From the IMG/VR virus record IMGVR_UViG_3300022407_007576, positions 1 through 25,898 of that record: DNA of 25,898 nucleotides; one strand, given 5' to 3'. Positions 2,759 through 25,898 of the stretch are shown here, piece after piece. The notes beneath the pieces were generated by a model. That model was not told the origin of the DNA. It did not search any database and saw nothing but the letters and a program-made list of their open reading frames with translations. Source of the DNA: a virus (lineage: Duplodnaviria > Caudoviricetes). Position 1 is the first letter of the stretch. Every line of letters starts with the position of its first letter. The translations under genes were made by a program, and so were the position numbers.

Positions 2759-2767
2759 TATAAATAT
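2759..2767 (-). promoter_or_regulatory. ATATTTATA motif (candidate phage late promoter)
   Basis: Sits in the gap upstream of ORF 2298..2744. The 12-mer ATATTTATACCA is identical to the site at 862-873. Confidence 0.5.
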
Positions 2768-5531: not shown

Positions 5532-6553
5532 ATAAAGATAACATCGGTTAATTTATTTTTTATTTCTTCATTGTAAGGTCCCATTTCTACAAATACTTTA
5601 GAACCTTTAGGAACATCATTAGGAGAAATAACTCTTGTAGTTGTTCCGTACATCCTTTTATTTTGTTTGTAAGGATCATTATCTATGACTGCTATTATTT
5701 GATTTACATCAATTCCTAAATTTATTAGATAATAATAAGTAAAATGAGCACCAAAAACATAAAACTTTTTATTTTTAATACCTTCAATTCTTTTCTTATA
5801 AAAATCTATTAAATTAATAATATCTGATTTAATATTAAAAATTGTTGGGTTTATTTCAGATTTAGAAGGTTGAGTAATATAAAATATTGAATGGTCTTTA
5901 TAGTAAATTTTATCAATAATATTCCAACCATTTTTATGTAAGATATAATCTAAGTATTCTTCAGGTAAATAATTTGGATGTTCAAACATTATAGTAGATG
6001 GAAAATTCTGTTTTGAAAATTCTTTAAAATTAGGTAAAGAAAAAATATGATATTTAGGATTTCTTTCTTTTAAACCTGATAAGAATTCTTCTAAATCAAA
6101 TATATGTTCTACAAAATGTGAACTTATAACAACATCATTTTCTTCAATTTGAGATGGTTCAAATAAACCTTTAATTTTTTCTACTTTTGGGTGATCATAA
6201 AGATCTGATGGGTTTATATCTATTACCTTCCATGAATCAAAATCAGGGTTTGAATCTGAGTATAAAGAAAATACTAAACCTGATCCACCTGCTATTTCTA
6301 CTATGTTTGAATTTTCATATTGAAGAACTAATTTAGTAAATTTTTCATTATGTTTTTTCCAAGTATCACCAACACAATTATTGTGTTGACTTATGTATAT
6401 GTCTAATGGATCAATATAAGGTAAAAACTTAATTGAACCATCTTCATTTTCAACAATATAGGCTTCTGTTAATTTTTCGTTTGGAGAAATTTTAGAAGTA
6501 GTTTGAGTACAAACACTTAATGGAAAATTAGGAAATGTGTGTAATATATTCAT
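5528..6553 (-). CDS. SAM-dependent methyltransferase, NDP-sugar C-methyltransferase-like
   Basis: IVEIAGGSG (SAM motif I), SSHFVEHI, FEHPNY, VFGA, IDNDPYKQNKRMYGT. Start moved from 6604 to the ATG at 6553 (MNILHTF) to remove the overlap with the upstream gene. Confidence 0.75.
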   Translation of the reverse strand: MNILHTFPNFPLSVCTQTTSKISPNEKLTEAYIVENEDGSIKFLPYIDPLDIYISQHNNCVGDTWKKHNEKFTKLVLQYENSNIVEIAGGSGLVFSLYSDSNPDFDSWKVIDINPSDLYDHPKVEKIKGLFEPSQIEENDVVISSHFVEHIFDLEEFLSGLKERNPKYHIFSLPNFKEFSKQNFPSTIMFEHPNYLPEEYLDYILHKNGWNIIDKIYYKDHSIFYITQPSKSEINPTIFNIKSDIINLIDFYKKRIEGIKNKKFYVFGAHFTYYYLINLGIDVNQIIAVIDNDPYKQNKRMYGTTTRVISPNDVPKGSKVFVEMGPYNEEIKNKLTDVIFI

Positions 6554-6560
6554 AAAATAT

Positions 6561-7292
6561 CTATCGTATAATAGCTGTGGTAGAGGATTGATTTGGTGTT
6601 TCAAATTCTATTACTGGGATGTTATTTTTTATTAAATGCCATTTAGTTAGATATTCATCTCTTATAGGGGAATCTTGACCTGGCCATCCTCCTGAAAGAA
6701 ATGTTTGGAAATCTGTGTCTAATGTAATATAAGATATGATATATGAGAATAAATTAGAGAATTTTTCCATATTATTATAATTACCTAATATGAACAAACC
6801 ATAATATCCTCTATGAGATACTCTAGGATCTGTATACCATTTAGGTATATATACGTTGTTTAAATCTAAATTACCTAAATCAAGAGGTAATTGATTATAA
6901 TCTAAATCAAATCTAGTTCTAATTACTACATCATATTCAATTTGTGATTGTTTACATAATAAAAATGATTTATACACTGAGTAATACATACTTAGTATAG
7001 TATTTATAGGATATCTCCAAATAGGACATCTATAACCACTAGCTTCAAATGTTATAGGAGATTCTAATATATAATTTTTAGGTTTGTATAGTTCTACTAA
7101 TTCTTTATATTCGTCTTTACTTAAAGAATATTGAACATTCCCTTGCCCAAAATTTGTAGATTCAAAATTAGAAGTTTCCCATGAATGGAAATATATGTCA
7201 CAATCATATTTATCTAAATAATTCGATTTTAGACTTTCGTAACTTTGTTTAAAATTTCGTGGCTGACCACTTATACAAATTGCTATTTTCAT
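6561..7292 (-). CDS. Putative glycosyltransferase-like protein (MKIAxCxSGQPR type)
   Basis: MKIAICISGQPR, DIYFHSW, SMYYS and YDVVIRTRFD, a motif set typical of uncharacterised proteins in polysaccharide loci and large phages. Confidence 0.6.
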   Translation of the reverse strand: MKIAICISGQPRNFKQSYESLKSNYLDKYDCDIYFHSWETSNFESTNFGQGNVQYSLSKDEYKELVELYKPKNYILESPITFEASGYRCPIWRYPINTILSMYYSVYKSFLLCKQSQIEYDVVIRTRFDLDYNQLPLDLGNLDLNNVYIPKWYTDPRVSHRGYYGLFILGNYNNMEKFSNLFSYIISYITLDTDFQTFLSGGWPGQDSPIRDEYLTKWHLIKNNIPVIEFETPNQSSTTAIIR

Positions 7293-7726
7293 TTTTTATA
7301 ATTTTCAATATAATCACTACAAATCCCTATACACTGAGTTATATTATCATTGTGAATTTCAGGCATTACAGCTATTGATTGTTGTATAGGTTGTTTACCT
7401 GGGTATGCCCAAATAAATCCTTTTGATGTTAAGGTTACTGTATCTTCTTCGTGCCAAAAGTAATTAAATCCACCAATAGCATTAAACCATTCCATAGCTT
7501 CTATGGTTTTGCAATGTATCCAAAGAGATTGTGACCTTTGATTTAACCAAAGTTGACTTATACCATATTGGGGTTCATCATGTCCTAATAAAAGAACACC
7601 TTCAATACTCCAAATATCAATTTCAACATCATAACCCAAAGATATAGCTTTATCAATATATTCAGGATTATTTTCTTTTCCGGGAATTTTTCCGTTTACA
7701 TTACCTCTATGAGATATTAATATCAT
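7289..7726 (-). CDS. Short GDPD/PLC-like phosphodiesterase
   Basis: ISHRGN, EN, YDVEIDIW, LGHD, WIHCK and GICSD match glycerophosphodiester phosphodiesterase TIM-barrel motifs. Confidence 0.75.
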   Translation of the reverse strand: MILISHRGNVNGKIPGKENNPEYIDKAISLGYDVEIDIWSIEGVLLLGHDEPQYGISQLWLNQRSQSLWIHCKTIEAMEWFNAIGGFNYFWHEEDTVTLTSKGFIWAYPGKQPIQQSIAVMPEIHNDNITQCIGICSDYIENYKK

Positions 7727-7732
7727 AATTTT

Positions 7733-8593
7733 TTAATATTTTTCGTTTAAATGTAATTTACGAACATCTCCTCGGTCTTCCAACCTATTTTCAGAAATAA
7801 TTTCATGAAACATATGAATACCATAAGCTCTATGTTCACCACTAAAATATACTCCGTTTTGTTTTAAACCATAAAATAAATTATGTGGTCCACCCCATGT
7901 AGAATTCATATCAAACACTTGAGGATGATATGCTAATTCTCTACCTAATTCTAAAGTATCATTAGACACAACATGTAAATTAAAATCATGAACATAATTG
8001 TGAGAAACATAATTTATAGAAGGATGGTAATCCATTTCCCCATTAGGTGAAATTTCACCTTTAGGTAAATTATTATTAGGATTATCTCCACCTCTATAAT
8101 AGGTTTCAAAATCTGATGGAATAAATTCAGATAAGTTAAGTTTTGTTAAAATGTCGTCGTAGTTAATTTTTTCTTTAGCACTAAGCGTAGGTAACGACCA
8201 CATAAAATTATTATTATTATGTTCTAAAAATATTTTATTAAAATTATTAGATACACAGTAATCTGATTTTAACCATAACGTTTTACCTGGAGTATTATTT
8301 GACTCCAATGAAAGTGATACATCATACCAATTTCTTATATCTTGAAGTAGATTTTTCTTATTAAGTTCAGGATCATAAGGGAATATTAAGATATCTTTGA
8401 TATAATTTTTAATATCGTATTGTCTTATTAAATCTATTAAATCATGGTTACTTAATTCATGTTCATGAGTATTATAGATTACAAAATTATCCCATATTAA
8501 ATCAACGTTTTGAAGTTCTAATAAAGATTTTAAACTATATTTAGCATGTTTTAAATCTAATGTAGTATGAGTTGTAAATATGCAGGTATTCAT
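7733..8593 (-). CDS. Hypothetical protein, possibly a divergent GT-A glycosyltransferase
   Basis: 286-aa ORF within the glycosylation cluster. LWLKSDY and a late HMFHE are only weakly GT-like. Confidence 0.5.
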   Translation of the reverse strand: MNTCIFTTHTTLDLKHAKYSLKSLLELQNVDLIWDNFVIYNTHEHELSNHDLIDLIRQYDIKNYIKDILIFPYDPELNKKNLLQDIRNWYDVSLSLESNNTPGKTLWLKSDYCVSNNFNKIFLEHNNNNFMWSLPTLSAKEKINYDDILTKLNLSEFIPSDFETYYRGGDNPNNNLPKGEISPNGEMDYHPSINYVSHNYVHDFNLHVVSNDTLELGRELAYHPQVFDMNSTWGGPHNLFYGLKQNGVYFSGEHRAYGIHMFHEIISENRLEDRGDVRKLHLNEKY

Positions 8594-9300
8594 TATTTAA
8601 TTTTATTTAGTTTATTAACATTCATACTAACATTTAAGGGAGTAGAATTATTTATCAATTTAGGTAATATACTAAGATTAGTTTTAAAAGCCAAATCTTT
8701 CATTGTCTTTAATTCAGTACCTACGTTATATAAACCTGTAGCTTTTTTATTGATTAGACTAATAATTAATTTAGATATAACATCTACATAATCAAAATTG
8801 CCAATTTGATTTACCCAAGCTTCTTTATATTTAAATGGGGTTTCTTTATGAGTTCCTCTAAGTACTAAATGGTTAGGATCTAATTGAACATAACTATCAC
8901 CTAATAATTTTGTATAGCTATACCAATTATTTCCATGTATAGGAATATCATCCTCACTAGCTTCATCTATTGAATTAGTGTAAACATAGTCTGTTGATAT
9001 ATGAACTAGTTTTATTCTTTCTTTAGAGCAATAATTTGATAGATTTACAACACTTCTATAATTAATATCCCAATGTAAGTCTTTATTAGTAGAGTAAGTA
9101 TCAGTATGAGCTATGCAGTTAACTAAAACTTCATAACGTGAAGAAAAAGCTACTCCATAAAAATCTTCAATAAAGTATTTCCAATATAAATTTTCTTGGG
9201 TTATATCGAAACCATCTTTTTTTCTAGATATAAAATCCCATCCAGTTTGTTTAACAATTTCAGATCCTAATAACCCATCTCCTAATACTACTATTTTCAT
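8593..9300 (-). CDS. RmlD-like NDP-4-keto-sugar reductase (extended SDR)
   Basis: VVLGDGLLG Rossmann motif, VNCIAHT, HISTDYVY and YSYTK (YxxxK). Confidence 0.85.
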   Translation of the reverse strand: MKIVVLGDGLLGSEIVKQTGWDFISRKKDGFDITQENLYWKYFIEDFYGVAFSSRYEVLVNCIAHTDTYSTNKDLHWDINYRSVVNLSNYCSKERIKLVHISTDYVYTNSIDEASEDDIPIHGNNWYSYTKLLGDSYVQLDPNHLVLRGTHKETPFKYKEAWVNQIGNFDYVDVISKLIISLINKKATGLYNVGTELKTMKDLAFKTNLSILPKLINNSTPLNVSMNVNKLNKIK

Positions 9301-10559
9301 TTGAATTTTTTAATAACACTTTCAATATATTTGAATACTTCTTCATTATAATGTGGAGCGGCACCTATAAAAAATACTTTATCTAACACCTTATTTGCTT
9401 CAGGGTATAAGTGGCTATTACCTAATTGTTTGTATCCTGGGTGTAATAAAATATTACCTGCAAAGTAATTTCGTGTTTGAATTTTGTTATCTTCTAAGTA
9501 TTGAACTAATCTATGTTTTAATCCTGGTTCTTCACATATAAATGGTGTTCCAAACCAACAAGGGTCAGCTTTGTCTAAAGTTTTAGGTACTCTAAGATTT
9601 GGAATATTATCTAAAAATATTTTTTCTAGACGTTCTTTAGAATTTTTTCTATTAATTTCAATTTCATCTAATTTTTCAAGTTGGACTATTCCAATTGCAC
9701 CTTGTAAGTCTAATGGTTTTAGATTGTAACCCATTTCAGAAAAGACATACTTATGGTCAATTATTCCATCGTAAGAGTCTAACCATTTATCAAATCGTTT
9801 ACCACAAGTACCACATGAAGCTAGGTTAGCTGCTCCTACACAGTAGCAATCTCTACCCCACCAAGCAATACTCATCATTAATTTCTTTAACTCTTCATCA
9901 TTAGTACAAATCATTCCACCTTCTCCTGTTGAAATGTGATGTGCTGGGTAAAATGAATTTGAAAATGCTATATAGTATTCATTTAGATATTTTCCATCCC
10001 ATTTTGAACCTAAACTATCGCAATTATCACCTATTAATTTTAGGTTGTATTTTTTAGCAATTTCCATAAGTCTATCCATATCTGGTGGATTACCTAATAC
10101 AGGAGATACAAATATAGCTTTTGTATTTGGGGTAATTTTAGCTTCTACTTTATCTAAATCAAAATTTAATGTTTCCCATTCAATATCAGCAAATTTGGGT
10201 ATTAATCTATTTTGGTAGATAACAGATATAGTAGTAGCAAATCCTACAGGAGATACAATTATTTCATCTCCTTCTGTCCAGTTGAATCTTCTTTTAAGAG
10301 CAGCTATTAATACTAAATTAGCAGATGATCCTGAGTTTACCATAAAGGAATATTTAGTATTAAATCTTTTAGAGAATTTTCTTTCAAATTTAAATACATT
10401 TTCACCTGTAGTAATCCATCTACCATGCAATATTGCGTTAACAGCAGCTTCTGTTTCTTGATGATCCCAATAAGGACCTGAATAGTATATAGGGGTTTCT
10501 CCAGGTATAAAATTTTTAGAATTATAAACGTATGGAGGGATGTGTTTTTCTTGAGTCAT
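9297..10559 (-). CDS. rfbH: CDP-4-keto-6-deoxyglucose 3-dehydrase (RfbH/DdhC, E1-type), DegT/DnrJ fold
   Basis: VNSGSSANL, DNCDSLGS, SFYPAHHISTGEGG (His in place of the PLP Lys), WGRDCYC...CGTCGKRF (Fe-S motif), HKYVFSEMGYNLKP, TRNYFAGN. Confidence 0.88.
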   Translation of the reverse strand: MTQEKHIPPYVYNSKNFIPGETPIYYSGPYWDHQETEAAVNAILHGRWITTGENVFKFERKFSKRFNTKYSFMVNSGSSANLVLIAALKRRFNWTEGDEIIVSPVGFATTISVIYQNRLIPKFADIEWETLNFDLDKVEAKITPNTKAIFVSPVLGNPPDMDRLMEIAKKYNLKLIGDNCDSLGSKWDGKYLNEYYIAFSNSFYPAHHISTGEGGMICTNDEELKKLMMSIAWWGRDCYCVGAANLASCGTCGKRFDKWLDSYDGIIDHKYVFSEMGYNLKPLDLQGAIGIVQLEKLDEIEINRKNSKERLEKIFLDNIPNLRVPKTLDKADPCWFGTPFICEEPGLKHRLVQYLEDNKIQTRNYFAGNILLHPGYKQLGNSHLYPEANKVLDKVFFIGAAPHYNEEVFKYIESVIKKFK

Positions 10560-10561
10560 AA

Positions 10562-11167
10562 TTAAAGATTATTATATATTATTCTGTCTTGATTTTTTAC
10601 TTCGTTAAATGTAGGAAGACCACTAGTTTGTTCAGAGTCACCTCTTAAAGCCCAATTGAAAAATTCATAATTTTGTTTTCCACTTCTTGTAAATATCCAA
10701 TCGTCTCCATAATGAATCTTAAGTTCATTTGGGATTTCAGTATATGATTTTTTATGAAAAAACATAGCAGCTCCATAACAATTAGGTCTTGCATTAGTAG
10801 GATTTAAATATACTCCTTCATCTTTTATTTCATGCCAACATGTCCAATGTGGTCCTATTATTCCCTTATCTTCGGTTATATGTTCATATAATAAACTTAT
10901 AATATCCCAATTTGAAACTACATCATCACTAGCTAAAAATATCTTATCATATTTTGATAATAATACTCCTTTATTCCAAGCAGGATTAACATAGATATTT
11001 TCAGGTTCTTTGATGTGAACAATTTTAGAAATATGGGTTAAATCTACATCTTGTAAAGAATTATCTATAACTATAATTTCACCTACATGTGAGTTAAGGG
11101 ATATTTGTTCTAAAGTACTAAGTGAGGTTTCAGGTTTCCACATGGTTGGCATTACTACTGAAATCAT
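10562..11167 (-). CDS. Glycosyltransferase family 2-like
   Basis: ISVVMPTMW, IIVIDNS, NIYVNPAWNKG, LASDD, YGDDW. Confidence 0.8.
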   Translation of the reverse strand: MISVVMPTMWKPETSLSTLEQISLNSHVGEIIVIDNSLQDVDLTHISKIVHIKEPENIYVNPAWNKGVLLSKYDKIFLASDDVVSNWDIISLLYEHITEDKGIIGPHWTCWHEIKDEGVYLNPTNARPNCYGAAMFFHKKSYTEIPNELKIHYGDDWIFTRSGKQNYEFFNWALRGDSEQTSGLPTFNEVKNQDRIIYNNL

Positions 11168-11967
11168 ATTCTATATAAGTTTTTAATTTGTTCTAAGTTA
11201 ATATTATCCATTACAAATTTTGAATCTTCCATAGTTTCATCAAATGAATAACCAATGAGTTCTCTTTGTTCTTTAACATGCTCATTATCTTCTTTCATAT
11301 TAATTCCTTGAGCATGTGATACTTGATTTTCATGTTGTCTCCATAAAAATATAGCATCTTCACATTTTTTTAGATTTTTAATTTTATGTAGAAAAACAGT
11401 ATATAACCATTCAAAATCACAATTCCATTTTTCTCTATAATCTAATATACCACTATTTAAAATAGTATCTTTCCTAATAATAGTTGAATGACACATCCAA
11501 GGTATTAAATACCCTACAGAATTAACAGATAATTCATTAATTCTCATGCTATCACCACTTGTAATTTCATTATTATCATTAATTAAAAATACCTTACTCC
11601 AACATCCATCTAAATCATTTTCTTCAATAAAAGTAATTTGATTTAAAGCTTTATTACTTTCCCAAAGATCATCATAATGAAGAAATGAAACATATTGTGA
11701 ATCATACTTTTCCCAACATCTGAATATCTTACCCCAAATTCCTTCTTTAGTAAAATAGGAATATTCAGGAAACCATTCAACATTTACACCTGTATCTTTT
11801 AATACCTGTTTACATTCATCTGATATATTTTCATCAGCTGCTACTGTAATTAGGATAGTATCTAAGGTTTGTTCGTTTAAGCTTTCTATACCATTTAATA
11901 AAAATTCAGGTATAGGTGTCCCAGGTGAACTTACTCCAATTGGTATTACTACATGTAATCTATACAT
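11164..11967 (-). CDS. Glycosyltransferase family 2-like
   Basis: LHVVIP, SLNEQT, FLHYDDLW, DFEW, WRQHENQVS. Confidence 0.8.
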   Translation of the reverse strand: MYRLHVVIPIGVSSPGTPIPEFLLNGIESLNEQTLDTILITVAADENISDECKQVLKDTGVNVEWFPEYSYFTKEGIWGKIFRCWEKYDSQYVSFLHYDDLWESNKALNQITFIEENDLDGCWSKVFLINDNNEITSGDSMRINELSVNSVGYLIPWMCHSTIIRKDTILNSGILDYREKWNCDFEWLYTVFLHKIKNLKKCEDAIFLWRQHENQVSHAQGINMKEDNEHVKEQRELIGYSFDETMEDSKFVMDNINLEQIKNLYRI

Positions 11968-13312
11968 AATGTTCTAAATAATAATTTAAATCTTCTGGGG
12001 TTCCTAATCCCCACATTGCTTTTGTATTGAATGTTCTGATTTGTTTGCAGTCTCCTATAGCTTCATTAAATACAGGACAAACGTAAAATTCATTATTTAC
12101 TCTAATATCTTTTTTAATCATTTGTTCTGCGTATTTTACAAAATCAGATCCATTTTTCCAGTAATAATAGCCTACTGTTGCAATATCAGAGATTGGGTTT
12201 TTTTCTGCTACTTCCGTTACTAACCCATTATCATCAACTTTAGCAAATGACCATTTAGGGTGTGTAGCTGTAAATGTAACTATACCACCATCGGCATCAG
12301 TTTCTTGCATTTTATACATAAACTCATTTGAATCCCATTCTACAAATTGGTCTGAATTAGCAAAGAATAAAGGTGCATTATTATTTATGAATTCTTTGGC
12401 TAATAATGCAGTACAAGCTGCTCCTTCAGTTAATCCTTCAGTTTCTACAATTTTACATCCAGGTGTAATTAGGTTTAATAAAGTATCTAAATTATATTTT
12501 TGTCTGTGAGATTTTTGTACTACATAAATGTAATTTGCTTCTAGATTTAAGTTTTCTACTACAACTTGAATCATAGGTTTACCTTTCACTTCAATAAGGG
12601 GTTTTGGGAAAGTGTATCCGGCTTGTTCAAATCGTGAACCAGCTCCAGCCATAGGAATTAAAACATTTAGTTTTTCGTCTTTCCATTTAGGTGTTAAATT
12701 CATTTTTTCTTGGTTTAAATATTTATTTATATTATTATACGAAACATCTTTTGGGGATCCAACTCTCATTACAAAGGCTTTACTACGAGAAGCTGCTAAT
12801 AAACCATAGGGTGAATCTTCTACTATTAAAGTTTCTTCAGGTAAATACCCAAGTTTACTCATAGCTGACCAATATATTTCAGGATGGGGTTTACTACTAA
12901 TTACATCTTCATTTGATAATATTAAATCAAAACGATCAATTATATCAAATTTAGATAAAACAGTTAATACAGTTTTTCTAATACTATTAGAACATACTGC
13001 TAATTTAAAACCTTCTTGAATCAAGAGATCCATACAAACCTGTAATTGAGGATTTGGTTTTAAGTTTGATAAGGCTTTTAAAGTATATTTTTGTTTATCA
13101 TCCCAAACTTTTTTATAAAGTTTAGTAGGTAATCCTTTATCTTGAGTTAGCATTTCAAGTTTTTGATTAGTTTTTAAACCATCATACCTACTTAAATGTT
13201 CGTTCCAAGATATTTCATACTTAGGTCCTAATGCTTCATTTAATGCTTCAAAATGAATATTTTTAGCTTCTACTAAAACTCCATCTAAATCAAATATAAT
13301 TAATTTTATCAT
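11960..13312 (-). CDS. HAD phosphatase fused to a sugar-phosphate nucleotidyltransferase-like domain
   Basis: N-terminal FDLDGVL, CSNS, KPHPEIY and EDSPYG (HAD motifs I-IV). C-terminal IPMAGAGSRF...PKPLI, VAEK, EFYVCP and GLGTPEDL (NTP transferase). Confidence 0.88.
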   Translation of the reverse strand: MIKLIIFDLDGVLVEAKNIHFEALNEALGPKYEISWNEHLSRYDGLKTNQKLEMLTQDKGLPTKLYKKVWDDKQKYTLKALSNLKPNPQLQVCMDLLIQEGFKLAVCSNSIRKTVLTVLSKFDIIDRFDLILSNEDVISSKPHPEIYWSAMSKLGYLPEETLIVEDSPYGLLAASRSKAFVMRVGSPKDVSYNNINKYLNQEKMNLTPKWKDEKLNVLIPMAGAGSRFEQAGYTFPKPLIEVKGKPMIQVVVENLNLEANYIYVVQKSHRQKYNLDTLLNLITPGCKIVETEGLTEGAACTALLAKEFINNNAPLFFANSDQFVEWDSNEFMYKMQETDADGGIVTFTATHPKWSFAKVDDNGLVTEVAEKNPISDIATVGYYYWKNGSDFVKYAEQMIKKDIRVNNEFYVCPVFNEAIGDCKQIRTFNTKAMWGLGTPEDLNYYLEHYV

Positions 13313-13932
13313 AATGTATCGTAGTAATTATTTTGTTTTTCTTGTCTATCAATTGTTTTTGGATGATATAAAGAATAATCCTCCTCCATAGGTAGAGTTG
13401 TATAAGTTTTAAATCCTTCTAATACTTCATGTACTTTATTTTTCCATTTTATACTAGGAGTGTTTCTATAAATTCTCCATTGATAATCTGGCCAATTAAC
13501 CCATCCTTCCGAATTTACATTCCATCTCCATTTCTGAATATGTTCTTGTGTTAAACCTTCTACAGTATTAACTCTAGGGACTAATAGTACATCTAATTCG
13601 GGATTTGATTCTAAAATAAAAGGTAAAGATTCTATAATAGGTGTACAAGGAATTTCATCAGCATCTATTTGAAAGATAAAATCTCCTAAGCATATTTTAG
13701 AAAATTTATTCTTCCAATCAGCAAAATGTCCTTTAAATTCAGATTCAATTAAAAGTATTTGATTTAAAGAGGAATACTCTTTAAGAGTGTTTTGTAACTC
13801 TTGAGACATTTTAGGACTATCTGCTAGTACTACTATCTCGTCTTGTTCTCGTTTGTTTGAAAGGAGGAAGTTGACTAGTCTTTTCACTTCCTCCAATTCA
13901 TTACAAACTGTTATTGCATAACTTATTTTCAT
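13309..13932 (-). CDS. Glycosyltransferase family 2
   Basis: ISYAITVCNE, FQIDADE (DxD), PDYQWRIY, VHE. Confidence 0.88.
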   Translation of the reverse strand: MKISYAITVCNELEEVKRLVNFLLSNKREQDEIVVLADSPKMSQELQNTLKEYSSLNQILLIESEFKGHFADWKNKFSKICLGDFIFQIDADEIPCTPIIESLPFILESNPELDVLLVPRVNTVEGLTQEHIQKWRWNVNSEGWVNWPDYQWRIYRNTPSIKWKNKVHEVLEGFKTYTTLPMEEDYSLYHPKTIDRQEKQNNYYDTL

Positions 13933-13936
13933 TTTT

Positions 13937-14389
13937 TTAGTTATAAAAACCTATATAATCTAATGCTTCAATAAAATCGTTTTGGGAATGATTTTTTAAA
14001 GATTTAATATCAGTTTTATGAGTATAATACTCTTCAGTACCAGGTATTTTAAATTTACCTTTTTCTTCATCGCTTACTTCAACTGCTTTTATACCTGCCC
14101 ATTGCCAATTATCTTTATGAGTACCGTTAGCAAATACTGTTCCTTTTTCTTGAATATTAATAGTTATTGGGTACCAAACTCTTTTTTTATCATCTACTGA
14201 TTTGATATCTTTGTAAAGTTCAGGTAGGGTTTCTTCATAGGTTTCAAAATCAAATTCACCTTCTTTCATTAGATCATTTGTTTGAAAACCACATCCAAAA
14301 CAAAAATAATTGTTTTTAGTTTCATTTACAGGAGTGACATAGCAAGCATCACTCTCGCAACGTGGACATATAGATAGTTTATCTTTCAT
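13937..14389 (-). CDS. Hypothetical protein with N-terminal zinc ribbon
   Basis: CPRCESDAC...CFGCG. Confidence 0.7.
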   Translation of the reverse strand: MKDKLSICPRCESDACYVTPVNETKNNYFCFGCGFQTNDLMKEGEFDFETYEETLPELYKDIKSVDDKKRVWYPITINIQEKGTVFANGTHKDNWQWAGIKAVEVSDEEKGKFKIPGTEEYYTHKTDIKSLKNHSQNDFIEALDYIGFYN

Positions 14390-14390
14390 T

Positions 14391-15698
14391 TTATTCTACT
14401 TTTTTTAATTTAGGTAACTCAACCTTTTTCAATTGAGGTAATTTTAATTGAATTTGTTTTGGTAACTCGGGTACATTAGAATTTAATATTATATCTAATT
14501 TTTCTTGCATTTTCTCAAATGAGAAATTAGTTTTACAATAGTGAGCTAAACGTTTACCATTATCTTGGTATTTTTTATAATTATCAAAATAATCTCTTAA
14601 TAACCCCCCAGCAAATCCATAATCAACTGTAAACCATTGAGATCCTTCAATTAACATATCAGGAACTTGTGCTGATGGATGGATATTGTTTAAAGTACCT
14701 GGGATTAATGAAGTAAATTCAGGATTTAAGAAGTCTAATTGACCACTCCAATTTGAAGCAATTACTGGTTTTTTAGTTTGAGTAAATTCAAGTAATGGTC
14801 GGCCGAATCCTTCACCTTTAGTAAAACTAACCATTGCTTTTATTTTTGAATGATTATATAATTGGTTTACTTCATCATCTGATATTTCACCATGGAATAG
14901 GTAAATGTTAGGTAGATTTTTAGTAGGTATAGAATGTCTTATAGCATCTATTTTCTTTAAAATATTATCTCTATCTATAATACTAGTAGGACCAGACATG
15001 GTTTTTAATATAAGGGCAGGTTTTTTAGATTTATTCTTAAATGCTTCTAAAAATACTCTAACTAAACCACCTACATCTTTTCTATCTTGTCCCCAATCAC
15101 CTTGCAACCAATGACCTACAAATAAGAATGCAAAGTCTTCTTTTACAATATCTAAGGCTTGTTTTATTTCAGAAGCAGGTGTTAAGGCCGCAGGAAAATA
15201 TTTAGTAATGTCTATCCCTTCAAATAATACTTCAATTGGTGATGTCAATTCTATATTACCAATAACTTGCTTAGTTCTTTCGTCTTGTTTTTGGAATTTA
15301 GAATCTTGAAATACTTTTTTAGCATGTTCTGAAGATACTAAATTTAAACTCATTCTATTTAACCCTTCAATCCATTGTGGAGCACAAATTGTAGTTTCAA
15401 TACCTGCTGTAATCCCTATATTAAATTTACCAATAGGTTGAAATTCATTTGGTACTGTGATTTGTGCCCAAATATCAGGTTGTTGAGTCATTTGACCTGG
15501 GAGAATATGAGGTTGTAAAAATCCCCATTCTTCAGGATGATCTTCAATAAATCCCCAAGGTGTATTACCCCAACGTTGAGGTAAAATTTTAACGTCATAT
15601 TTGTCTAAATTAATTAACGCTTTAACTAAATCTCTACTGCGAGAACCATATCCGCTGTAAGTGTCAATTGGACAACTTATTACAAATGTATTTTTCAT
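14391..15698 (-). CDS. Glycosyltransferase family 4 (GT-B)
   Basis: SGYG, FLFVGHW, RKD, and GEGFGRPLLEF...PVIASNWSG (Ex7E motif). Confidence 0.88.
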   Translation of the reverse strand: MKNTFVISCPIDTYSGYGSRSRDLVKALINLDKYDVKILPQRWGNTPWGFIEDHPEEWGFLQPHILPGQMTQQPDIWAQITVPNEFQPIGKFNIGITAGIETTICAPQWIEGLNRMSLNLVSSEHAKKVFQDSKFQKQDERTKQVIGNIELTSPIEVLFEGIDITKYFPAALTPASEIKQALDIVKEDFAFLFVGHWLQGDWGQDRKDVGGLVRVFLEAFKNKSKKPALILKTMSGPTSIIDRDNILKKIDAIRHSIPTKNLPNIYLFHGEISDDEVNQLYNHSKIKAMVSFTKGEGFGRPLLEFTQTKKPVIASNWSGQLDFLNPEFTSLIPGTLNNIHPSAQVPDMLIEGSQWFTVDYGFAGGLLRDYFDNYKKYQDNGKRLAHYCKTNFSFEKMQEKLDIILNSNVPELPKQIQLKLPQLKKVELPKLKKVE

Positions 15699-15707
15699 TT
15701 TATCTTA

Positions 15708-17132
15708 TTAATACGTTAATTTATGAACTAATTCTAGGGGTTCCAAATCTTCTATCTTAAAAAATTCAAAGGATTTTTTAGGGGTAAATGTTTTTAAAGT
15801 TAAATCAATATCCTTAATAACATTATTACACATCATTCTAGCTGACATTCCTGATTCATCTGATGTTACCCATTCTCTAGCGGCTAACCCATTCTCTTTT
15901 CTAGTTTCAGGAGACATTTCATAAACTTGTTGAATAGCTAAAGCTAATTCTCTAAAATCTAATTTATCATCCCAAATATAAGGAGTAATTGGTGAACCTA
16001 CTAATGACATATTATTTGGAAATACAGGTACCGCCCATTTACCACATTTTTTATACTTACCAAAGTGATTTGATGGAAACTCTTTAGTTAATTCTACCCA
16101 TTTTCCATTTTCATCTTCAAAACGCATTTGATCCTGCATACCACCGGTTACATTGGCTATAATCATTTTACCAGCCATCATTGCTTCAGTTAATGCTAAC
16201 CCCCATCCTTCATTTGAAGTAGGTAATACAGTTACATCAGCAATGTTATATAACTTATTCAATTCTTGAGTATCAATTCTACCATCTGAAAATATTATAT
16301 TTGAGTTTTTACCAAATAATAATTCTCTAACTGCATATAAATCTGTACCATTATTGTCTACAGGTTGGGTGTGTAGTATTAAAGCTATTTTATCTGCTTT
16401 TTCTTTAGGTAAAGTATCTAAGAATAATTTATGAGCTGCTAATAAATCACTAATACACTTTCTTCTAATATTTCTTGAGTTAAAGAATAATACAAAATCA
16501 AATTCTTTGTCTCCAAATAATCTTTTTTTAGTTTCTTTTAATTCATCTTTACTTTCAATTGGGAAGAACATTTTTTCATTTATACCATGTGGCACATAAG
16601 AAATAACTTTACCATCTGCTCTTTTACCTAAAACCATTTCATTAATGTTTTTGGTTTGTTTTGAAATAGCTAATAAGGCATCACATGATTCGTAAAATGC
16701 TCTGTTATAAAGTGGAGCTGGTAGATCATCCCAAATATTTAAGTAAATCATTGGGATTTGTTTTCTTACTTCATTTTCAATGGCAAATAACCAATCATAA
16801 TATCTTGGATCTGTAAAGAACATTAAACCATCAGGTTTTTCATTCTTTATCATATATCTAATTAAATCTGAATTACCATATCCATTATTAGGGTATATAA
16901 TAACGTTTGAGTCGGTATTACCTGTTTCTTTGTTAGTAGCATCAGATAAATCCATTCTTTGTCCTGCTTCAGGATGATCAATAGCAGCTCCAATTACTAT
17001 CCAATTATAGTGGTGAGCAGTACCTAAAACTATTTCTCGAGCCATTGTAGCAACACCCGAGTGCATTCTGATATCATCACAGATGAATAATATCTTTTTT
17101 CGTTGTTCTTTTGGTATATAACCTTCTTTCAT
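15708..17132 (-). CDS. Glycosyltransferase family 4 (GT-B)
   Basis: HSGVA, VPHGI, RNIRRK, and NEGWGLALTEAMMAG (Ex7E motif). Confidence 0.9.
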   Translation of the reverse strand: MKEGYIPKEQRKKILFICDDIRMHSGVATMAREIVLGTAHHYNWIVIGAAIDHPEAGQRMDLSDATNKETGNTDSNVIIYPNNGYGNSDLIRYMIKNEKPDGLMFFTDPRYYDWLFAIENEVRKQIPMIYLNIWDDLPAPLYNRAFYESCDALLAISKQTKNINEMVLGKRADGKVISYVPHGINEKMFFPIESKDELKETKKRLFGDKEFDFVLFFNSRNIRRKCISDLLAAHKLFLDTLPKEKADKIALILHTQPVDNNGTDLYAVRELLFGKNSNIIFSDGRIDTQELNKLYNIADVTVLPTSNEGWGLALTEAMMAGKMIIANVTGGMQDQMRFEDENGKWVELTKEFPSNHFGKYKKCGKWAVPVFPNNMSLVGSPITPYIWDDKLDFRELALAIQQVYEMSPETRKENGLAAREWVTSDESGMSARMMCNNVIKDIDLTLKTFTPKKSFEFFKIEDLEPLELVHKLTY

Positions 17133-20228: not shown

Positions 20229-21869
20229 TTACATCATTCCTTGCATAGGATTGGTTTCTTCTTTATTATCTTCTTTTTTCTCGTAAATTACAGATTCTGT
20301 TGTTAAAATTGTACCTGCAACTGAAGCTGCATTTTCTAATGCAATACGAGTTACTTTTTTAGGATCAATAATACCTGCTCCTTTAAAGTCCATTACTGAT
20401 AAGTCTTTATAATTAAGACCTGCCCAATTGCTTCCTTTTTCTGAGTCAGTTAATTGAGAACCTAAATATTGAACTTCTACTAGATCATGTCCGGCATTAG
20501 TTAAAATTCTTTGAAATGGAGCTGCTGTTGCTCTATAAACAATTTTCTTACCGTTTACAAAATCATTTGAACCTTCAAATTTAATTGATTTTCTAGCATA
20601 TAATAAAGCAGTTCCACCACCTACTACAATACCTTCTTCTAAAGCAGCTCTTGTAGCAAATAAAGCATCTTCTACTCTATCTTTTTTCTCTTTGATTTCA
20701 AGTTCACTATTACCACCTACGTTAATAATAGCTACACCACCAATCATTTTACCTAAACGCTCTTGTAATTTTTCTTTTTCAAATGGGGAACCTGCGTCAT
20801 CAATTTGTTTTTTAATTTCTTGAGCTCTGTTTGTAATAGCTTCTTCTTCACCTTTACCATCTACAATAGTAGTTTTTTCTTTACCAACTGTAGCAGTACG
20901 TGATGAACCTAAACATTGTTTTAAAGTATTAACATCAATTTTTTCTAATTTATGACCTTTATCTTTAGATAAAACCTGACCACCTGTAATAATAGCTAGA
21001 TCTTCTAAAGCCATTGTTCTACGATCTCCAAACTCAGGGGCTTTAACTGCTACTACATTTACAATACCTCTCATCTTATTAACGATTGTTACTGCTAATG
21101 CTTCACCATCAATATCCTCTGCTACAATTAACAATGAACGTTTTTCAGTGTTAGCTAATGTTAAAGCTGGTACTAATTCGTTTACTGAAGTAATTCTACC
21201 ATTGTAAATTAAAATGTAAGGATTTTCTAATACAGCTGTCATTGTATTATTGTCAGTTACAAAATAAGGTGATTTGTAACCTCTATCAAATTGCATACCT
21301 TCTACAACTTCAAGTGAAGTTTCTCCAGATTTTGATTCTTCAATTGCTACAACTCCATCTCTACCTACTTTTTCTAAAGCGGTAGCAATTAAGTTTCCAA
21401 TTTCTTCATCATTATTACCTGAAATAGTAGCAACTTCTTTAATTTGTTGATTATCAGAAATGTCTTCTGTTAAGTTATTAAGGGCTGTTTTAATTTCTTC
21501 TACAGCAGCATCAATACCTTTTTTAATTTCAACTGCATTTTGACCTGCATTAACATGTTTTAATCCTTCTTCTAGAATAGCATATGTTAATAAAGTACTT
21601 GTAGTTGTACCATCTCCAACCTCATTTGCTGATTTTACTGATACTTTTTGTACCAATTCAGCTCCTGTTGATTCAATTGGGTCTTCTAATTCTTTAAAGG
21701 CTTTAGCTACAGTTACACCATCTTTGGTTACTGTTAATTGACCATAATCTCCTTTAATTAATACTGTTCTACCTGCTGGTCCTAAAGTAGAAGATACGCT
21801 ATCATTAAGTTTTTTAACTCCTGATAGTAATTTTGATTTTAATTCTGTTCCGAATGCTGTTTCTGTCAT
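20229..21869 (-). CDS. groEL: Chaperonin GroEL (Cpn60)
   Basis: [60 protein letters not shown] and C-terminal GMM. Confidence 0.98.
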
Positions 21870-21871
21870 GA

Positions 21872-22165
21872 TTAATCTTCTATAATTGATGGGATTTGTT
21901 CTTGTGCTATAATTAAATAATCTACGTTATCTAACGTAAGTTTTTGTGCCCCCATTGGTGGGATAACTACTTTCATACCTACTTTTAAATCAGTTGGTAC
22001 AAATTCACCTTTATGCCAATTAAAAGTATCAGATACTGCTATAACTTCGGCTACAAGTGATTTTTCATGACCTACGTCAGGGATAATGATATTACCTACC
22101 ATCATTTCATTTTCTTCAAGTTGTTTTAGGATAATACTACCCAGTCTTGGTGTTAATTTACTCAT
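21872..22165 (-). CDS. groES: Co-chaperonin GroES (Cpn10)
   Basis: LTPRLGSIIL, GNIIIPD mobile loop, AEVIAV, LKVGMKV. 97 aa, immediately upstream of groEL. Confidence 0.88.
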   Translation of the reverse strand: MSKLTPRLGSIILKQLEENEMMVGNIIIPDVGHEKSLVAEVIAVSDTFNWHKGEFVPTDLKVGMKVVIPPMGAQKLTLDNVDYLIIAQEQIPSIIED

Positions 22166-22460
22166 TGTTGATTAAATTTTTTAAATTGGTTAAAGTTGTT
22201 TCTAATTCTGTAATATACTCTTTAATAGTATAAACGGGTTTTTTTTCAATAGTTTGATTTTTTACTACACATCTTAAAGCATTATTTAATTGAGTATAAT
22301 AACCTACTACTTTTTCTTTTTGAGTAGTAGGGTCTATAAAAACCAAATTATAAGATTCTTCATCAAATATTATTTTATAATCTCCTAAAGCGGGATCTAT
22401 AATAGTTGATATTTTTTTAATTGTGCCTTTTTGTCGGCCTTTAAAATTAGGATTTGCCAT
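22158..22460 (-). CDS. Hypothetical protein overlapping the groES start
   Basis: 100-aa ORF with an 8-bp overlap with groES and a basic N-terminus (KGRQKG). Confidence 0.75.
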   Translation of the reverse strand: MANPNFKGRQKGTIKKISTIIDPALGDYKIIFDEESYNLVFIDPTTQKEKVVGYYTQLNNALRCVVKNQTIEKKPVYTIKEYITELETTLTNLKNLINNE

Positions 22461-22476
22461 AACTTTTACTTTTTTG

Positions 22477-22513
22477 TTTCGTATAATATACGAAAAATTT
22501 TTTGGGTATCCAA
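22477..22513 (-). promoter_or_regulatory. Promoter-like TTGG-N17-CGTATATT with overlapping 19-bp palindrome (candidate operator)
   Basis: Minus strand TTTGG ATACCCAAAAAATTTTT CGTATATT. The palindrome TTTCGTATA-A-TATACGAAA spans 22477-22495. Confidence 0.6.
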
Positions 22514-22542
22514 ATAAAACTTAACCTAAGGGCGTAAGGTTA
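22512..22542 (-). terminator. Weak intrinsic terminator-like hairpin after hsp20
   Basis: Minus strand TAACCT-TACGCCCTT-AGGTTA followed by AGTTTTATTT, directly after the stop codon. Confidence 0.45.
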
Positions 22543-23004
22543 TTATTTTATTTTTATTGATTTTGGTTTTGCTTTTTCAGCTACAGGTATAGCAATTTCT
22601 AGCAAACCATTTTCTAGTTTTGCTAGCGCTAATGATAAATCGTATTTAGCTGAGATTTTGTAACCTAAATTAAAGGATTTTTTAGATAATCCTCTTACGA
22701 TTGTTCCAGGGTGAAGTTCTTTTTCTTCTTCTGGTTTATTATAACTAATTTTTAAGACATCGTCTTCAATGTCTACGTTAACATCATCTTTAGTAAGACC
22801 AGTACATGCTACTTCAAAATGAAGTCCATCATCGTCATAAAAGATATTTAAAGGGTGAGGTTGTTTGGTGGTTGCTGCTGAACCGAATCCACTTGTTGGG
22901 AAAAAGAAATTGTGGAATAGAATGTCAAATTCATTGTAATTTGTACTCATATTGATTTACGTTTTGTGAGTGCTTTTGCTACTCGTTATTAATTGCCCTT
23001 AGGT
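22524..23004. repeat. 10-bp perfect inverted repeat bracketing hsp20 (ACCTAAGGGC at 22524-22533, GCCCTTAGGT at 22995-23004)
   Basis: The two intergenic 10-mers are exact reverse complements, read directly from the sequence. Confidence 0.85.
22543..22950 (-). CDS. Small heat shock protein Hsp20 (alpha-crystallin family)
   Basis: PLNI, FEVACTGLTKDDVNVDIEDDVLKISY, RGLSKKSF, AKLENGLLEIAIP and C-terminal IKI (IxI motif). Confidence 0.93.
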   Translation of the reverse strand: MSTNYNEFDILFHNFFFPTSGFGSAATTKQPHPLNIFYDDDGLHFEVACTGLTKDDVNVDIEDDVLKISYNKPEEEKELHPGTIVRGLSKKSFNLGYKISAKYDLSLALAKLENGLLEIAIPVAEKAKPKSIKIK

Positions 23005-23011
23005 CATTTGT

Positions 23012-23020
23012 TATAAATAT
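23012..23020 (-). promoter_or_regulatory. ATATTTATA motif (candidate phage late promoter) upstream of hsp20
   Basis: Intergenic, right after the clamp gene stop and just before the 5' arm of the inverted repeat. Confidence 0.5.
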
Positions 23021-23022
23021 TA

Positions 23023-23745
23023 TTACTCATGCAAAGCTACAAGAAAATATTCAGCTTTCACACCTGCTTCTTCTAAATTAATTTTTAATAAACCATCTTT
23101 ATAAAGATATGCTTTACCAACTGCATCTTTATTTACTGATACTATTTCTCTAAAATTATTAGCACTAAATGCTACGGGTTTAACTTGATTAGTAATAGTT
23201 CCATTTTCAGTAAAATTAACTTTGTTAGAGTATGATGATTTTTCCCCAATCATAAAACTAACAACATCTTCTTTTTGAAAATCCTTTGTTATTCCTATTT
23301 CAAAACGAGGTGGTTTATCTAATGCATTGTGGGCTTTAATATATTTTTGAGTAAAATCAAAATTAATATCAAATTCTAAGTCATGGGGTGGTAAGTTAGG
23401 TACTACACCTGGATCCTGAATTAATCCTAAATCACTTAAATTATACGATAAGTCAAATTGATTATCACTAATATGTAATTTTAAGAAGTGATTATTTTGT
23501 TTTTCTAGTTTTAACTCAATATAATCATTCGTGATATTAAGTAATTTTAATAGTTGTCCAGTATTAAAAATACCAATTTCGCAGTCTTCTAAGGTTATAG
23601 GCGCTGTAACTTCTCCGATACAGTCCTTATTGTCAACTGCAAATTTGATGTGAGCTTCGTTGTCTTTTACCTTAAATTTAACTTGAGATGTTAATCCGTT
23701 TAAGTAAAAACTTTCAATTATTTGTGCTAATATTGTTTTATCCAT
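23023..23745 (-). CDS. Probable DNA polymerase sliding clamp (gp45/PCNA-like)
   Basis: 240 aa, beta-rich, EIGIFNTGQLLKLL and C-terminal GLLKINL...AEYFLVA. It directly follows polB and lies near the clamp loader. Confidence 0.7.
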   Translation of the reverse strand: MDKTILAQIIESFYLNGLTSQVKFKVKDNEAHIKFAVDNKDCIGEVTAPITLEDCEIGIFNTGQLLKLLNITNDYIELKLEKQNNHFLKLHISDNQFDLSYNLSDLGLIQDPGVVPNLPPHDLEFDINFDFTQKYIKAHNALDKPPRFEIGITKDFQKEDVVSFMIGEKSSYSNKVNFTENGTITNQVKPVAFSANNFREIVSVNKDAVGKAYLYKDGLLKINLEEAGVKAEYFLVALHE

Positions 23746-23746
23746 T

Positions 23747-24682
23747 TTATGAGAATGTAAAGAATTTATGTATTAATGGGTTTGCAGGTGGTAATGACCA
23801 TTCAAGATCAGTGTAAAACCCTTGTAATTTGTTTTGTAATATAGTTTCAAAGCTTTTTCCTCTATCAATATATTCATTAATAAAGTCTTTCATTTTTTGA
23901 GGTAAATCAAATTCTAAAAAAGCTATAGCTTCCATCTGATAGGGATTATCTTTTAAATAGACCCATTTTATTTTATCACCCTGTACTATTTGACTATGGT
24001 CTCTATCTAATTGCCAGAATCTTAATAAGTCATTATAGCAAGTAGCTGCTTTTACATTAGCACCTGCTCCTTTTTTAAGTGTAGATAATATTTTACCTGG
24101 TTTAGGGATAGCCTCAACATAATCATTTAATACTTTAACTGCTGTTGGATTACCAATTAAAGTAAAATCAACATCAGGTGAAGTAGCTTCTTGTCTAAAC
24201 TCATGAATTTTTTTATCTACAATACTTTGTGGAGTACCTTTAATGATTAATTCAAGAATTTCTTGATAAAACTTACCAAAGTATTTTGGAAAATTAGCTT
24301 TTTTAAATTCTAATCCTTTTATATCAAGTTCTTCTTTAGCTATACCTTCTTTTTTAGTAATCCATTGAGCATAACGTCTTGTTGCTCTAAAATAGGCAGA
24401 ACGAATAACACACTCCGTTTTCATTTCTAATCGGTGTGTACTAATATTAAAGGCTTCTTTAGCGAGTGTGTTATAATGTTCTGTTATAATATCTTGGTAT
24501 TTAAGAGCTACTCTCTCTAATAAATCATCTTTTTCTTGATCAGGTTTTTCATCAAAATCAGGATATAAATGTTTTAATAAAGGTTCAGCATTAAAGTAAT
24601 TAGAGTCAGTATCCACATAGGCACAGAAGTTGAAATCACCTTCATCACAAATCCACCATGGCGTGTCTTCTAAATGCTTCAT
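23747..24682 (-). CDS. polB: Family B DNA polymerase, C-terminal part (palm motif C and thumb)
   Basis: YVDTDSNY (motif C), LEMKTE, RRYA, IKGLE, GDKIKWVYLK and C-terminal IHKFF (clamp-binding-like). Confidence 0.9.
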   Translation of the reverse strand: MKHLEDTPWWICDEGDFNFCAYVDTDSNYFNAEPLLKHLYPDFDEKPDQEKDDLLERVALKYQDIITEHYNTLAKEAFNISTHRLEMKTECVIRSAYFRATRRYAQWITKKEGIAKEELDIKGLEFKKANFPKYFGKFYQEILELIIKGTPQSIVDKKIHEFRQEATSPDVDFTLIGNPTAVKVLNDYVEAIPKPGKILSTLKKGAGANVKAATCYNDLLRFWQLDRDHSQIVQGDKIKWVYLKDNPYQMEAIAFLEFDLPQKMKDFINEYIDRGKSFETILQNKLQGFYTDLEWSLPPANPLIHKFFTFS

Positions 24683-24683
24683 A

Positions 24684-24947
24684 TTAAAATGTTCTTTCTC
24701 CTGGAATTGGAGGTAAATTTATTGGTCTATTTCCTTTTGAATCTATATCAGATCTTTCTTTAAGTGATATTTCAAATACATTCCCATTAACTTTACATCT
24801 ACCACCTTGTTGTAGCATTTTTTTAAAGAACTTCTCTTGTGATTCATCCCAACTTTCAGATAACTTAATAACTAATTGCTTTTCAGCTTTAACTCCGTTT
24901 ACTGTAATAGTAACTCCGTTTCTAATTGATTGTCCTTTTAACGCCAT
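24684..24947 (-). CDS. Hypothetical 87-aa protein inserted between the two polB parts
   Basis: Its ATG overlaps the upstream stop (TAATG) and its stop lies 1 nt before the next ATG, so it fills the gap exactly. Confidence 0.75.
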   Translation of the reverse strand: MALKGQSIRNGVTITVNGVKAEKQLVIKLSESWDESQEKFFKKMLQQGGRCKVNGNVFEISLKERSDIDSKGNRPINLPPIPGERTF

Positions 24948-25898
24948 TATATTTCTAATTTAATTTCACCTCTAATAACTTTATTCATATGTCTGTTAGC
25001 ACAAAGTGCTGATTCTTGAATAATACGTTGACCACTTAATGTAATAGCTTCTGATAAAATGACATTTCCGTATCTAAATGAAGGCAATGCTGTAGCACCA
25101 TAAAGTGAGTTAAGTAAGATTTTCATTGTATATTGTAATAAATGATTCTTTTCACCACCTACTGTATCACCTGCTTTATAAGCAGCTTTCATTCTATTTT
25201 TGTATAAAACCCTTTCATCAAACCATTTATTCAAAATAGTAGATAATACTGACTCTTTATCTGTACGGAATATAACACCATTTGCTGAGATAGCCAAATT
25301 ATATTGCTGAAGTAGTTTAACTAATTTGGAAGAAGTCCAATCAATTTTATTGAATTTATCTTTATTAGTAAACCATTCAGTAGTACGAGGTTTATCTTCA
25401 GTATCAGCTATTAAATCGTTTAAACCCAAATGATTATTTCTATCATTTAAATCAATAATTCTACCTACTAATGTTTCCTTACCAATGTTTAAAGACATGA
25501 TAATTGAAGGGTATAGTGAAGTTAAATCTTCATCAAACATATAGCGGTATAAACCTGCTTTAGGGCAAAATAAATAACCACCAGCATAATTAGCTTTTTT
25601 AATGGGATTTCTATCTCTAGAAGGAGGAACTATATCTTCAGATAATAAGAAGGCTGAGATAGCACCATCATGGATTTTTGATGATTGATAAACATCATCA
25701 TAATGAATTTTACCTTTATGGGCTAAATTTTTAGTTAAACTAATATAGTTAAATTTATTATCTAATGCTTTTAAAATTTCAACATCTCGAAAGTTATACT
25801 CAATAAACTTTTCTTTATCAGTTTCAAATAATCTATCCAAACTACCTTCATACTCAATTTTAGATAATTTACAATACTTTTCACCTAATACATCTATC
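24947..25898 (-). CDS. polB: Family B DNA polymerase, N-terminal part (exonuclease end, motif A, motif B); partial at the right edge
   Basis: The frame stays open to the window edge (IDVLGEKYCKLSKIEYEGSLDRLF). YNFRD (ExoIII), YAGGY, DLTSLYPSII (motif A), KILLNSLYG (motif B), AITLSGQ. Confidence 0.93.
   Translation of the reverse strand, partial: IDVLGEKYCKLSKIEYEGSLDRLFETDKEKFIEYNFRDVEILKALDNKFNYISLTKNLAHKGKIHYDDVYQSSKIHDGAISAFLLSEDIVPPSRDRNPIKKANYAGGYLFCPKAGLYRYMFDEDLTSLYPSIIMSLNIGKETLVGRIIDLNDRNNHLGLNDLIADTEDKPRTTEWFTNKDKFNKIDWTSSKLVKLLQQYNLAISANGVIFRTDKESVLSTILNKWFDERVLYKNRMKAAYKAGDTVGGEKNHLLQYTMKILLNSLYGATALPSFRYGNVILSEAITLSGQRIIQESALCANRHMNKVIRGEIKLEI

Follow-up and report, generated by a model that had tools for sequence, protein, structure and literature searches.

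Known two-chain family B polymerases

Motifs A and C of family B DNA polymerases (PolB) each give a catalytic Asp to one active site. Active two-chain PolBs have precedent (accessible text of PMC3061061, PMC2988022 and PMC13648687). The gp43A/gp43B pairs of the T4-like Aeromonas phages 25, 31, 44RR and 65 and of Acinetobacter phage 133 are encoded by genes separated by 2 bp to 3 kb of variable DNA, in one case an endonuclease gene, and the phage 25 halves co-purify and are active (PMC3061061 and PMC2988022, accessible text). The PolB1/PolB2 pair of Methanothermobacter thermautotrophicus is broken in the palm, about 83 residues after Pfu 467/468, and forms an active non-covalent 1:1 dimer that requires co-expression (PMC3061061, accessible text). 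The PhiKZ/chimallivirus polymerase consists of DNAP-N, DNAP-C and Rhc, an RNase H-clamp fusion (PMC13648687, accessible text). Genes fractured by endonucleases without inteins include Aeh1 nrdA/mobE and T4 gene 60/mobA (PMC2988022 and PMC2677866, accessible text). Phages of 155-190 kb that carry divPolA1 are related to Flavobacterium phage vB_FspM_immuto (PMC11348598, accessible text).

The PolB of an uncultured freshwater phage is described here as the product of two genes, with the cut inside the catalytic palm, an arrangement found in a large group of relatives. The split is real, conserved and common to a clade. The 25,898-base record was analysed whole and is called the window. Split PolBs in general are known; the break site and the clade are new relative to the literature searched, which took in few subscription papers and gave no account of a phage PolB divided between motifs B and C.

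Like gp43A/gp43B, this is a two-gene phage PolB without an intein and with variable intervening DNA. The gp43 break lies at the finger tip, between motifs A and B, whereas the present one lies after motif B in a palm loop and in a separate lineage; the gp43B-like PHROG 1918 matches the N-part from motif B onward. Methanothermobacter PolB1/PolB2 is also broken in the palm domain, but its genes are archaeal, far apart and uncoupled. By Pfu numbering, we take the archaeal break to lie probably just after motif C, not before it. PhiKZ likewise has the motif A and motif C Asp on separate chains and its break in a lineage-specific palm insertion; however, it belongs to a divergent PolB clade with the break before motif B and the fingers on the C chain, and here the fingers are on the N subunit. 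A third protein associates in PhiKZ, and Rhc shows no sign of relation to the 87-aa protein described below. As in Aeh1 nrdA/mobE and T4 gene 60/mobA, an essential gene occupies two ORFs and some relatives have a gap nuclease with a co-conversion tract; unlike those cases, the gap in the window holds no nuclease, nor do the gaps of most relatives. The enzyme should work like the known split PolBs (gp43A/B, Methanothermobacter, PhiKZ), with a break position that differs from gp43A/B and PhiKZ.

Gene layout and position of the break

The N-part, an 87-aa ORF and the C-part all lie on the minus strand of the window, with the following features.

24947-25897, open at the window edge (24947..25898), minus strand: 3′ portion of the PolB N-subunit gene, 316 aa, with ExoIII, motif A, fingers, motif B and the following palm helix
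25781-25798, minus strand: ExoIII-type motif, on the N-part
25505..25534, minus strand: motif A with the first catalytic Asp, invariant in 25 N-halves but for one position
25097..25123, minus strand: motif B, on the N-part
24684..24947, minus strand: gene for an 87-aa basic protein, a frequent but movable gap occupant from a phage family without a named domain
23747..24682, minus strand: PolB C-subunit gene, 311 aa, with a conserved 21-residue leader, motif C, the remaining palm and the thumb
24602..24619, minus strand: motif C (YxDTDS) with the second catalytic Asp, its Tyr being C-part residue 22
23023..23745, minus strand: 240-aa gene coupled to the C-subunit gene, a likely sliding clamp to judge from size and position only

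Motifs A, B and C all have intact catalytic residues, A and B on the N gene and C on the C gene. The N-part ends in ...GEIKLEI-stop. The 87-aa start overlaps this stop (TAATG), and the 87-aa/C-part junction reads TAA-T-ATG. A preliminary description of this DNA had reported an N-part that carries ExoIII, motif A and motif B and then stops, motif C about 20 aa into a separate ORF, and coupling at both ends of the 87-aa ORF; the ORFs, motif positions and junctions were confirmed. Met1 and the DTDS of motif C are invariant in 30 C-halves. The full N-part is about 576 aa, going by relative L001 (96% identical, 576 aa), with about 260 N-terminal residues beyond the window edge. Only the ExoIII region of the exonuclease domain is inside the window, and the remainder is visible in relatives such as L001.

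The best PHROG for both parts was 262, with a divergent-PolB Pfam model as a weak second. The N-part covers positions 290-567 of the PHROG 262 profile and the C-part 565-846, giving end-to-end coverage. The closest single-chain relative, P0051 (851 aa), aligns with the N-part over residues 215-520 at 62% identity, with eight residues remaining to an end at 528. The C-part starts exactly at Met529 (47% identity), and the halves meet at residues 528/529. Both motifs were found by patterns in 86 of 113 single chains, where the spacing from motif B to motif C is 75 residues in 74 chains, 80 in one (P0051), 58-59 in 10 and 68 in one; the halves of the window add up to 58+21=79 residues. Compared with RB69 gp43, the break falls between residues 605 and 606, inside a 16-residue insertion, before D621/D623, and motif C aligns through P0051 to RB69 Y619-S624. 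In an AlphaFold model of P0051 (mean pLDDT 88), the break corresponds to the loop between helix 491-520 and strand 548-552. Loop residues 528-542 are the only internal stretch with pLDDT under 50, which may be due in part to few aligned relatives there.

These alignments indicate that the two ORFs together make up a whole PolB without loss of residues, with the break in a loop that is specific to the lineage and directly precedes the motif C strand. The preliminary description had left a loss at the junction to be checked against unsplit PolBs, and none was found; its contrast with the finger break of gp43A/gp43B also held, with motif B and the next helix on the N gene.

The reading that we consider quite probable, on comparative grounds, is that these are two separately started genes cut without loss, whose proteins likely assemble non-covalently, and that the 87-aa gene is likely independent and movable. 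Since both Asp act in one site by established PolB chemistry, a non-covalent heterodimer is likely the working form. The exonuclease, fingers and motif A Asp would come from the N-subunit; the C-subunit would contribute the thumb and place its motif C strands within the shared palm sheet. The overlapping stop and start codons would keep the two genes coupled in one operon. Conservation is 0.83 for the first 21 C-half residues and 0.60 for the last 11 N-half residues, which would fit a free N tail and a docking C leader. The break probably arose once, in an insertion of about 16-22 residues already gained by an ancestor, and the broken site would then have become ordinary intergenic space, taking cargo and free-standing endonuclease genes.

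Such a break adds a further natural break point in PolB, with fingers and motif A apart from motif C and thumb, and it is fixed in a wide range of large aquatic phages. With the lossless pair and the close single-chain P0051, the fission of an active-site gene can be tested directly, and the break points to a position where engineered split polymerases may tolerate a cut. Any PolB marker survey or tree that expects motif C on the same ORF would overlook the whole group or represent it by truncated sequences.

Conservation of the split and content of the gap

Scanning IMG/VR with the C-part gave 402 confirmed relatives, of which the best 80 were analysed. Both motif B and the C start are held in 71 of these; the other nine loci are incomplete. 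The loci are not independent, several being the same phage from different samples. Among the 71 loci from the best 80 of 402, none has fused halves. The halves abut directly in 28, the gap holds the 87-aa gene alone in 28 and with other genes in eight, and seven have other genes without it. A DNA pattern across the short junction, which would also match in-frame fusions with the same letters, returned a stop and a new out-of-frame start in 61/61 contigs (60 ATGA, 1 TAATG). Split relatives have C-part identities of 52-97%, and the 113 longer, single-chain proteins reach at most 54% identity to the C-part, one likely chimera aside. That protein, P0106, was dropped (57% over 46% of the C-part, with Clp-type domains). 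The best PolB identity to any cultured phage was 34-35%, and none is close.

The same three-gene order, which the preliminary description had proposed to look for in related phages, recurs in independent IMG/VR contigs. The N/87-aa junction is bridged by a contig of another public run (run X2, 24913-25178) and the 87-aa/C junction by one of a further run (run X3, 24456-24851); the public runs with the best matches come from freshwater or aquatic metagenomes. Median dN/dS over 16 pairs was 0.088 for the N-part, 0.115 for the C-part and 0.177 for the 87-aa gene, values that mark purifying selection on all three. PF00136 gave a single match in each of 4/4 near-complete relatives (at least 96% complete, 156-173 kb), and no second PolB was found in them by this search. 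There is next to no chance that the locus is an assembly artefact or a decaying pseudogene. The contig does come from an uncultured phage, and a second, divergent PolA-like gene is possible in these phages: a weak PolA-like ORF of 429-449 aa, below cut-off, occurs in 3/4 complete relatives, as a divergent PolA does in the divPolA1 group. However, the break is identical in every relative examined, junctions are bridged in other runs, catalytic motifs are invariant and dN/dS is near 0.1. The view of the preliminary description that this is no decayed pseudogene stands, and neither an assembly artefact nor relaxed selection on either half, both of which it named as contrary evidence, was seen.

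In a tree of 45 rows of C-regions, all 24 split C-halves and P0051 form one branch (SH-aLRT 99), which is consistent with one origin of the break. Support for the split rows alone as a group is 47, so P0051 could be a re-fusion. P0051 is the lone single-chain PolB in or beside the split branch and has a Met exactly at the split start; it may be either the closest unsplit sister or a re-fusion. Elsewhere among the single chains, L195 and P0080-P0084 have Asp for the usual Ser after Asn in motif B (KxxLNDxYG), and this altered motif might influence which nucleotides are selected in phages whose bases are modified.

The genes in the gap form 19 clusters across 99 distinct junctions, and gaps range up to about 5.9 kb. 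The 87-aa gene is the commonest occupant (71/99 junctions, in a set enriched for this gene since it was used as a search query). Pfam matches on 17 of the 19 clusters include DUF6165, mannose-6-phosphate isomerase, cytidylyltransferase, a PALP enzyme, DUF2452, epimerase, aminotransferase and acetyltransferase. The gap offers a trackable insertion hotspot within a replication operon.

Some relatives have HNH-like or GIY-YIG-like genes in the gap. L002:2724-3733 holds a divergent tract and a 258-aa gap gene with zinc-finger-type Pfam matches only, which we take from its motifs to be HNH-like. L002 and the nuclease-free L001 are 93-100% identical outside this tract, which begins shortly before motif B, runs to the N-gene end (78, 66, 68 and 51%) and is 90-96% identical to L018, the other nuclease carrier. 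This is the pattern expected of homing with co-conversion, so an endonuclease origin of the break is plausible from these comparisons. In L006, part of the divergent tract is kept and the nuclease is absent. L140-L143 have endonuclease-like genes of 257 and 229 aa on either side of the 87-aa gene inside the gap.

The halves might instead yield one continuous chain, through recoding (frameshift, ribosomal hop or readthrough) or through RNA or protein splicing. The two halves of the window are in the same reading frame (gap 264 nt), but the N frame meets six stops across the gap, and the 42 distinct gap lengths are spread over all three frames (13/11/18). The ATGA overlap of abutting loci would permit a -1 shift, yet a slippery pattern fits 1/17 distinct abutting junctions. 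Gaps of several kb and N-half tails that differ in length and sequence also argue against a continuous chain. As the preliminary description had noted for both junctions, inteins are not apparent: locus proteins have no Pfam intein match at E<=1, and a search for split-intein halves found no spare residues at either new terminus relative to P0051. Nothing matched in Rfam at E<=1 in 22000-25898, and the gap is either wholly taken up by the 87-aa ORF or absent (61 contigs), which speaks against a ribozyme core in the intervening DNA, as an intron would have. The RNA data comprise one run with scattered pieces, too thin to exclude RNA-level joining, and the sole joint that skips the 87-aa gene comes from a DNA run. 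A continuous chain is very unlikely indeed.

The junctions have no more promoter-like sites than expected by chance (4, versus 4.7 in shuffles). Two terminator-like hairpins (24697-24713 and 25171-25185) are present within the polymerase locus on the plus (non-coding) strand, versus 0.3 expected.

The 87-aa gene and its surroundings

A profile of the 87-aa protein matched 142 cluster representatives. In 77 of its 80 best loci, with C-part identities of 52-97%, the gene lies between the PolB halves; 76 were assigned by script and one was reclassified by eye, and the other three loci are truncated. The protein has a net charge of +5. No family in Pfam, PHROG or NCBIfam matches it, nor does any annotated phage record, and the ESM Atlas gave no usable match. 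Its model (mean pLDDT 67) has a beta-beta-alpha-alpha-beta-beta core and a low-confidence tail; Foldseek against the PDB returned no match at E<=0.001, and the best VIA-align Z was 3.2. The core also occurs as an internal insert in a 281-aa sigma-70-like protein family (20 members, contigs to 192 kb). This insert is the only functional clue for the 87-aa family and leans toward a nucleic-acid or transcription role. In P0238, residues 122-172 form the insert between the N- and C-terminal parts of the sigma-70-like protein; only one further near relative of this insert was found, and the carrier itself was not found in IMG/VR. The long profile matches P0179, P0258, P0210 and P0219 look like chimeric or repeat artefacts and were set aside.

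Homologs lie away from polB in two phages that have PolB as one open frame. In a phage with unsplit PolB (L109:3039-5999), the homolog is between what we take to be ribonucleotide reductase beta- and alpha-like genes, and another position is after a presumed GroEL-like gene. Twelve abutting-type records were tested, and four, including all three complete ones, have a homolog elsewhere. The three complete genomes are near-identical and carry a 74-aa homolog about 9 kb upstream; in G018 (L267:506-2642) it lies between presumably DpdA-like and QueC-like genes of a deazaguanine-type cluster. The other eight records, all incomplete (12-74% complete), had no match. Simple loss of the gene in abutting-type phages had been considered from 0/5 incomplete contigs and was overturned by the relocated homolog in complete genomes. 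Every complete split-PolB genome tested (G006, G016-G018) carries a homolog somewhere, and one complete PolA-bearing phage, immuto_2-6A, has no match. Occupancy of the gap by the 87-aa gene requires seven changes among 24 tree rows. The relocated homologs and the variable gap suggest that the gap position is dispensable and that the gene itself may be widely kept. It could be one of the conserved genes of these phages, linked in some way to replication.

The preliminary description had proposed a two- or three-subunit enzyme, with the 87-aa protein as a possible subunit, assembly factor or regulator. The functional, two-part split was upheld; the three-subunit form was not, as the 87-aa gene is often outside the gap (35 of the 71 loci from the best 80 of 402, 28 abutting and seven with other cargo). 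That the protein is an obligate third subunit, bridging the halves or assembling them, is very unlikely. There are no missing PolB residues for it to replace, and it has no homology to single-chain PolBs (hhalign probability 0.6%). Coupling at both ends and its rank as commonest occupant would suit such a role, as would its presence in every complete split-PolB genome tested, but homologs also occur in the two unsplit-PolB phages and the gene is relocated and shortened to 74 aa in some phages. Known split PolBs act as 1:1 dimers (PMC3061061 and PMC13648687, accessible text). Complex prediction for the N-half and C-half with the 87-aa protein as partner scored 0.00 in two runs and was counted neither for nor against binding.

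A looser role, as a non-essential or position-independent accessory (partner or regulator) of the PolB/clamp module kept near polB for co-expression, is also unlikely. Its frequency in the gap, its purifying selection, its basic charge, the homologs elsewhere in 4/12 abutting-type records and the absence of a match in the single PolA-bearing genome are in its favor. The eight unmatched incomplete records and the seven changes in occupancy weigh against it, and the other positions, by their presumed gene labels, are unrelated to polB. The core inside the sigma-70-like protein points to transcription as much as to replication. It is improbable that the 87-aa family is an accessory PolB-replisome subunit, older than the split and PolB-linked, that docked at the palm loop later cut and now forms a three-chain enzyme. 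Were this so, the active site of a three-chain PolB would be assembled from separately regulated genes. Two coupled polymerase genes with an independent, movable neighbor remain our preferred reading.

These phages resemble the immuto group in having the polymerase beside GroES/GroEL and nucleotide-modification genes and in the size of their relatives (156-173 kb). Unlike the split-PolB phages, a cultured immuto-group member has PolA at this site, and no mention of a split PolB was found in the accessible main text of the same paper (PMC11348598). The 240-aa gene at 23023..23745 has no Pfam, PHROG or NCBIfam match; in Mel-JY01, PolB and the clamp-loader ATPase flank a gene of similar size. The ORFs at 20229-22165 are presumably GroES- and GroEL-like, in an order that agrees with the annotated immuto-group order. 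Downstream of the replication and chaperonin genes, the minus strand at 2767-17132 carries about 14 kb of what we take to be glycosyltransferase-like and sugar-nucleotide genes. Three of six genome-bin matches are Flavobacteriales-type and the others differ, a hint of a Flavobacteriales-type host. Two adjacent minus-strand ORFs at 2-841 start with near-identical MENFDxKKYL, which is also found at the start of an L069 ORF.
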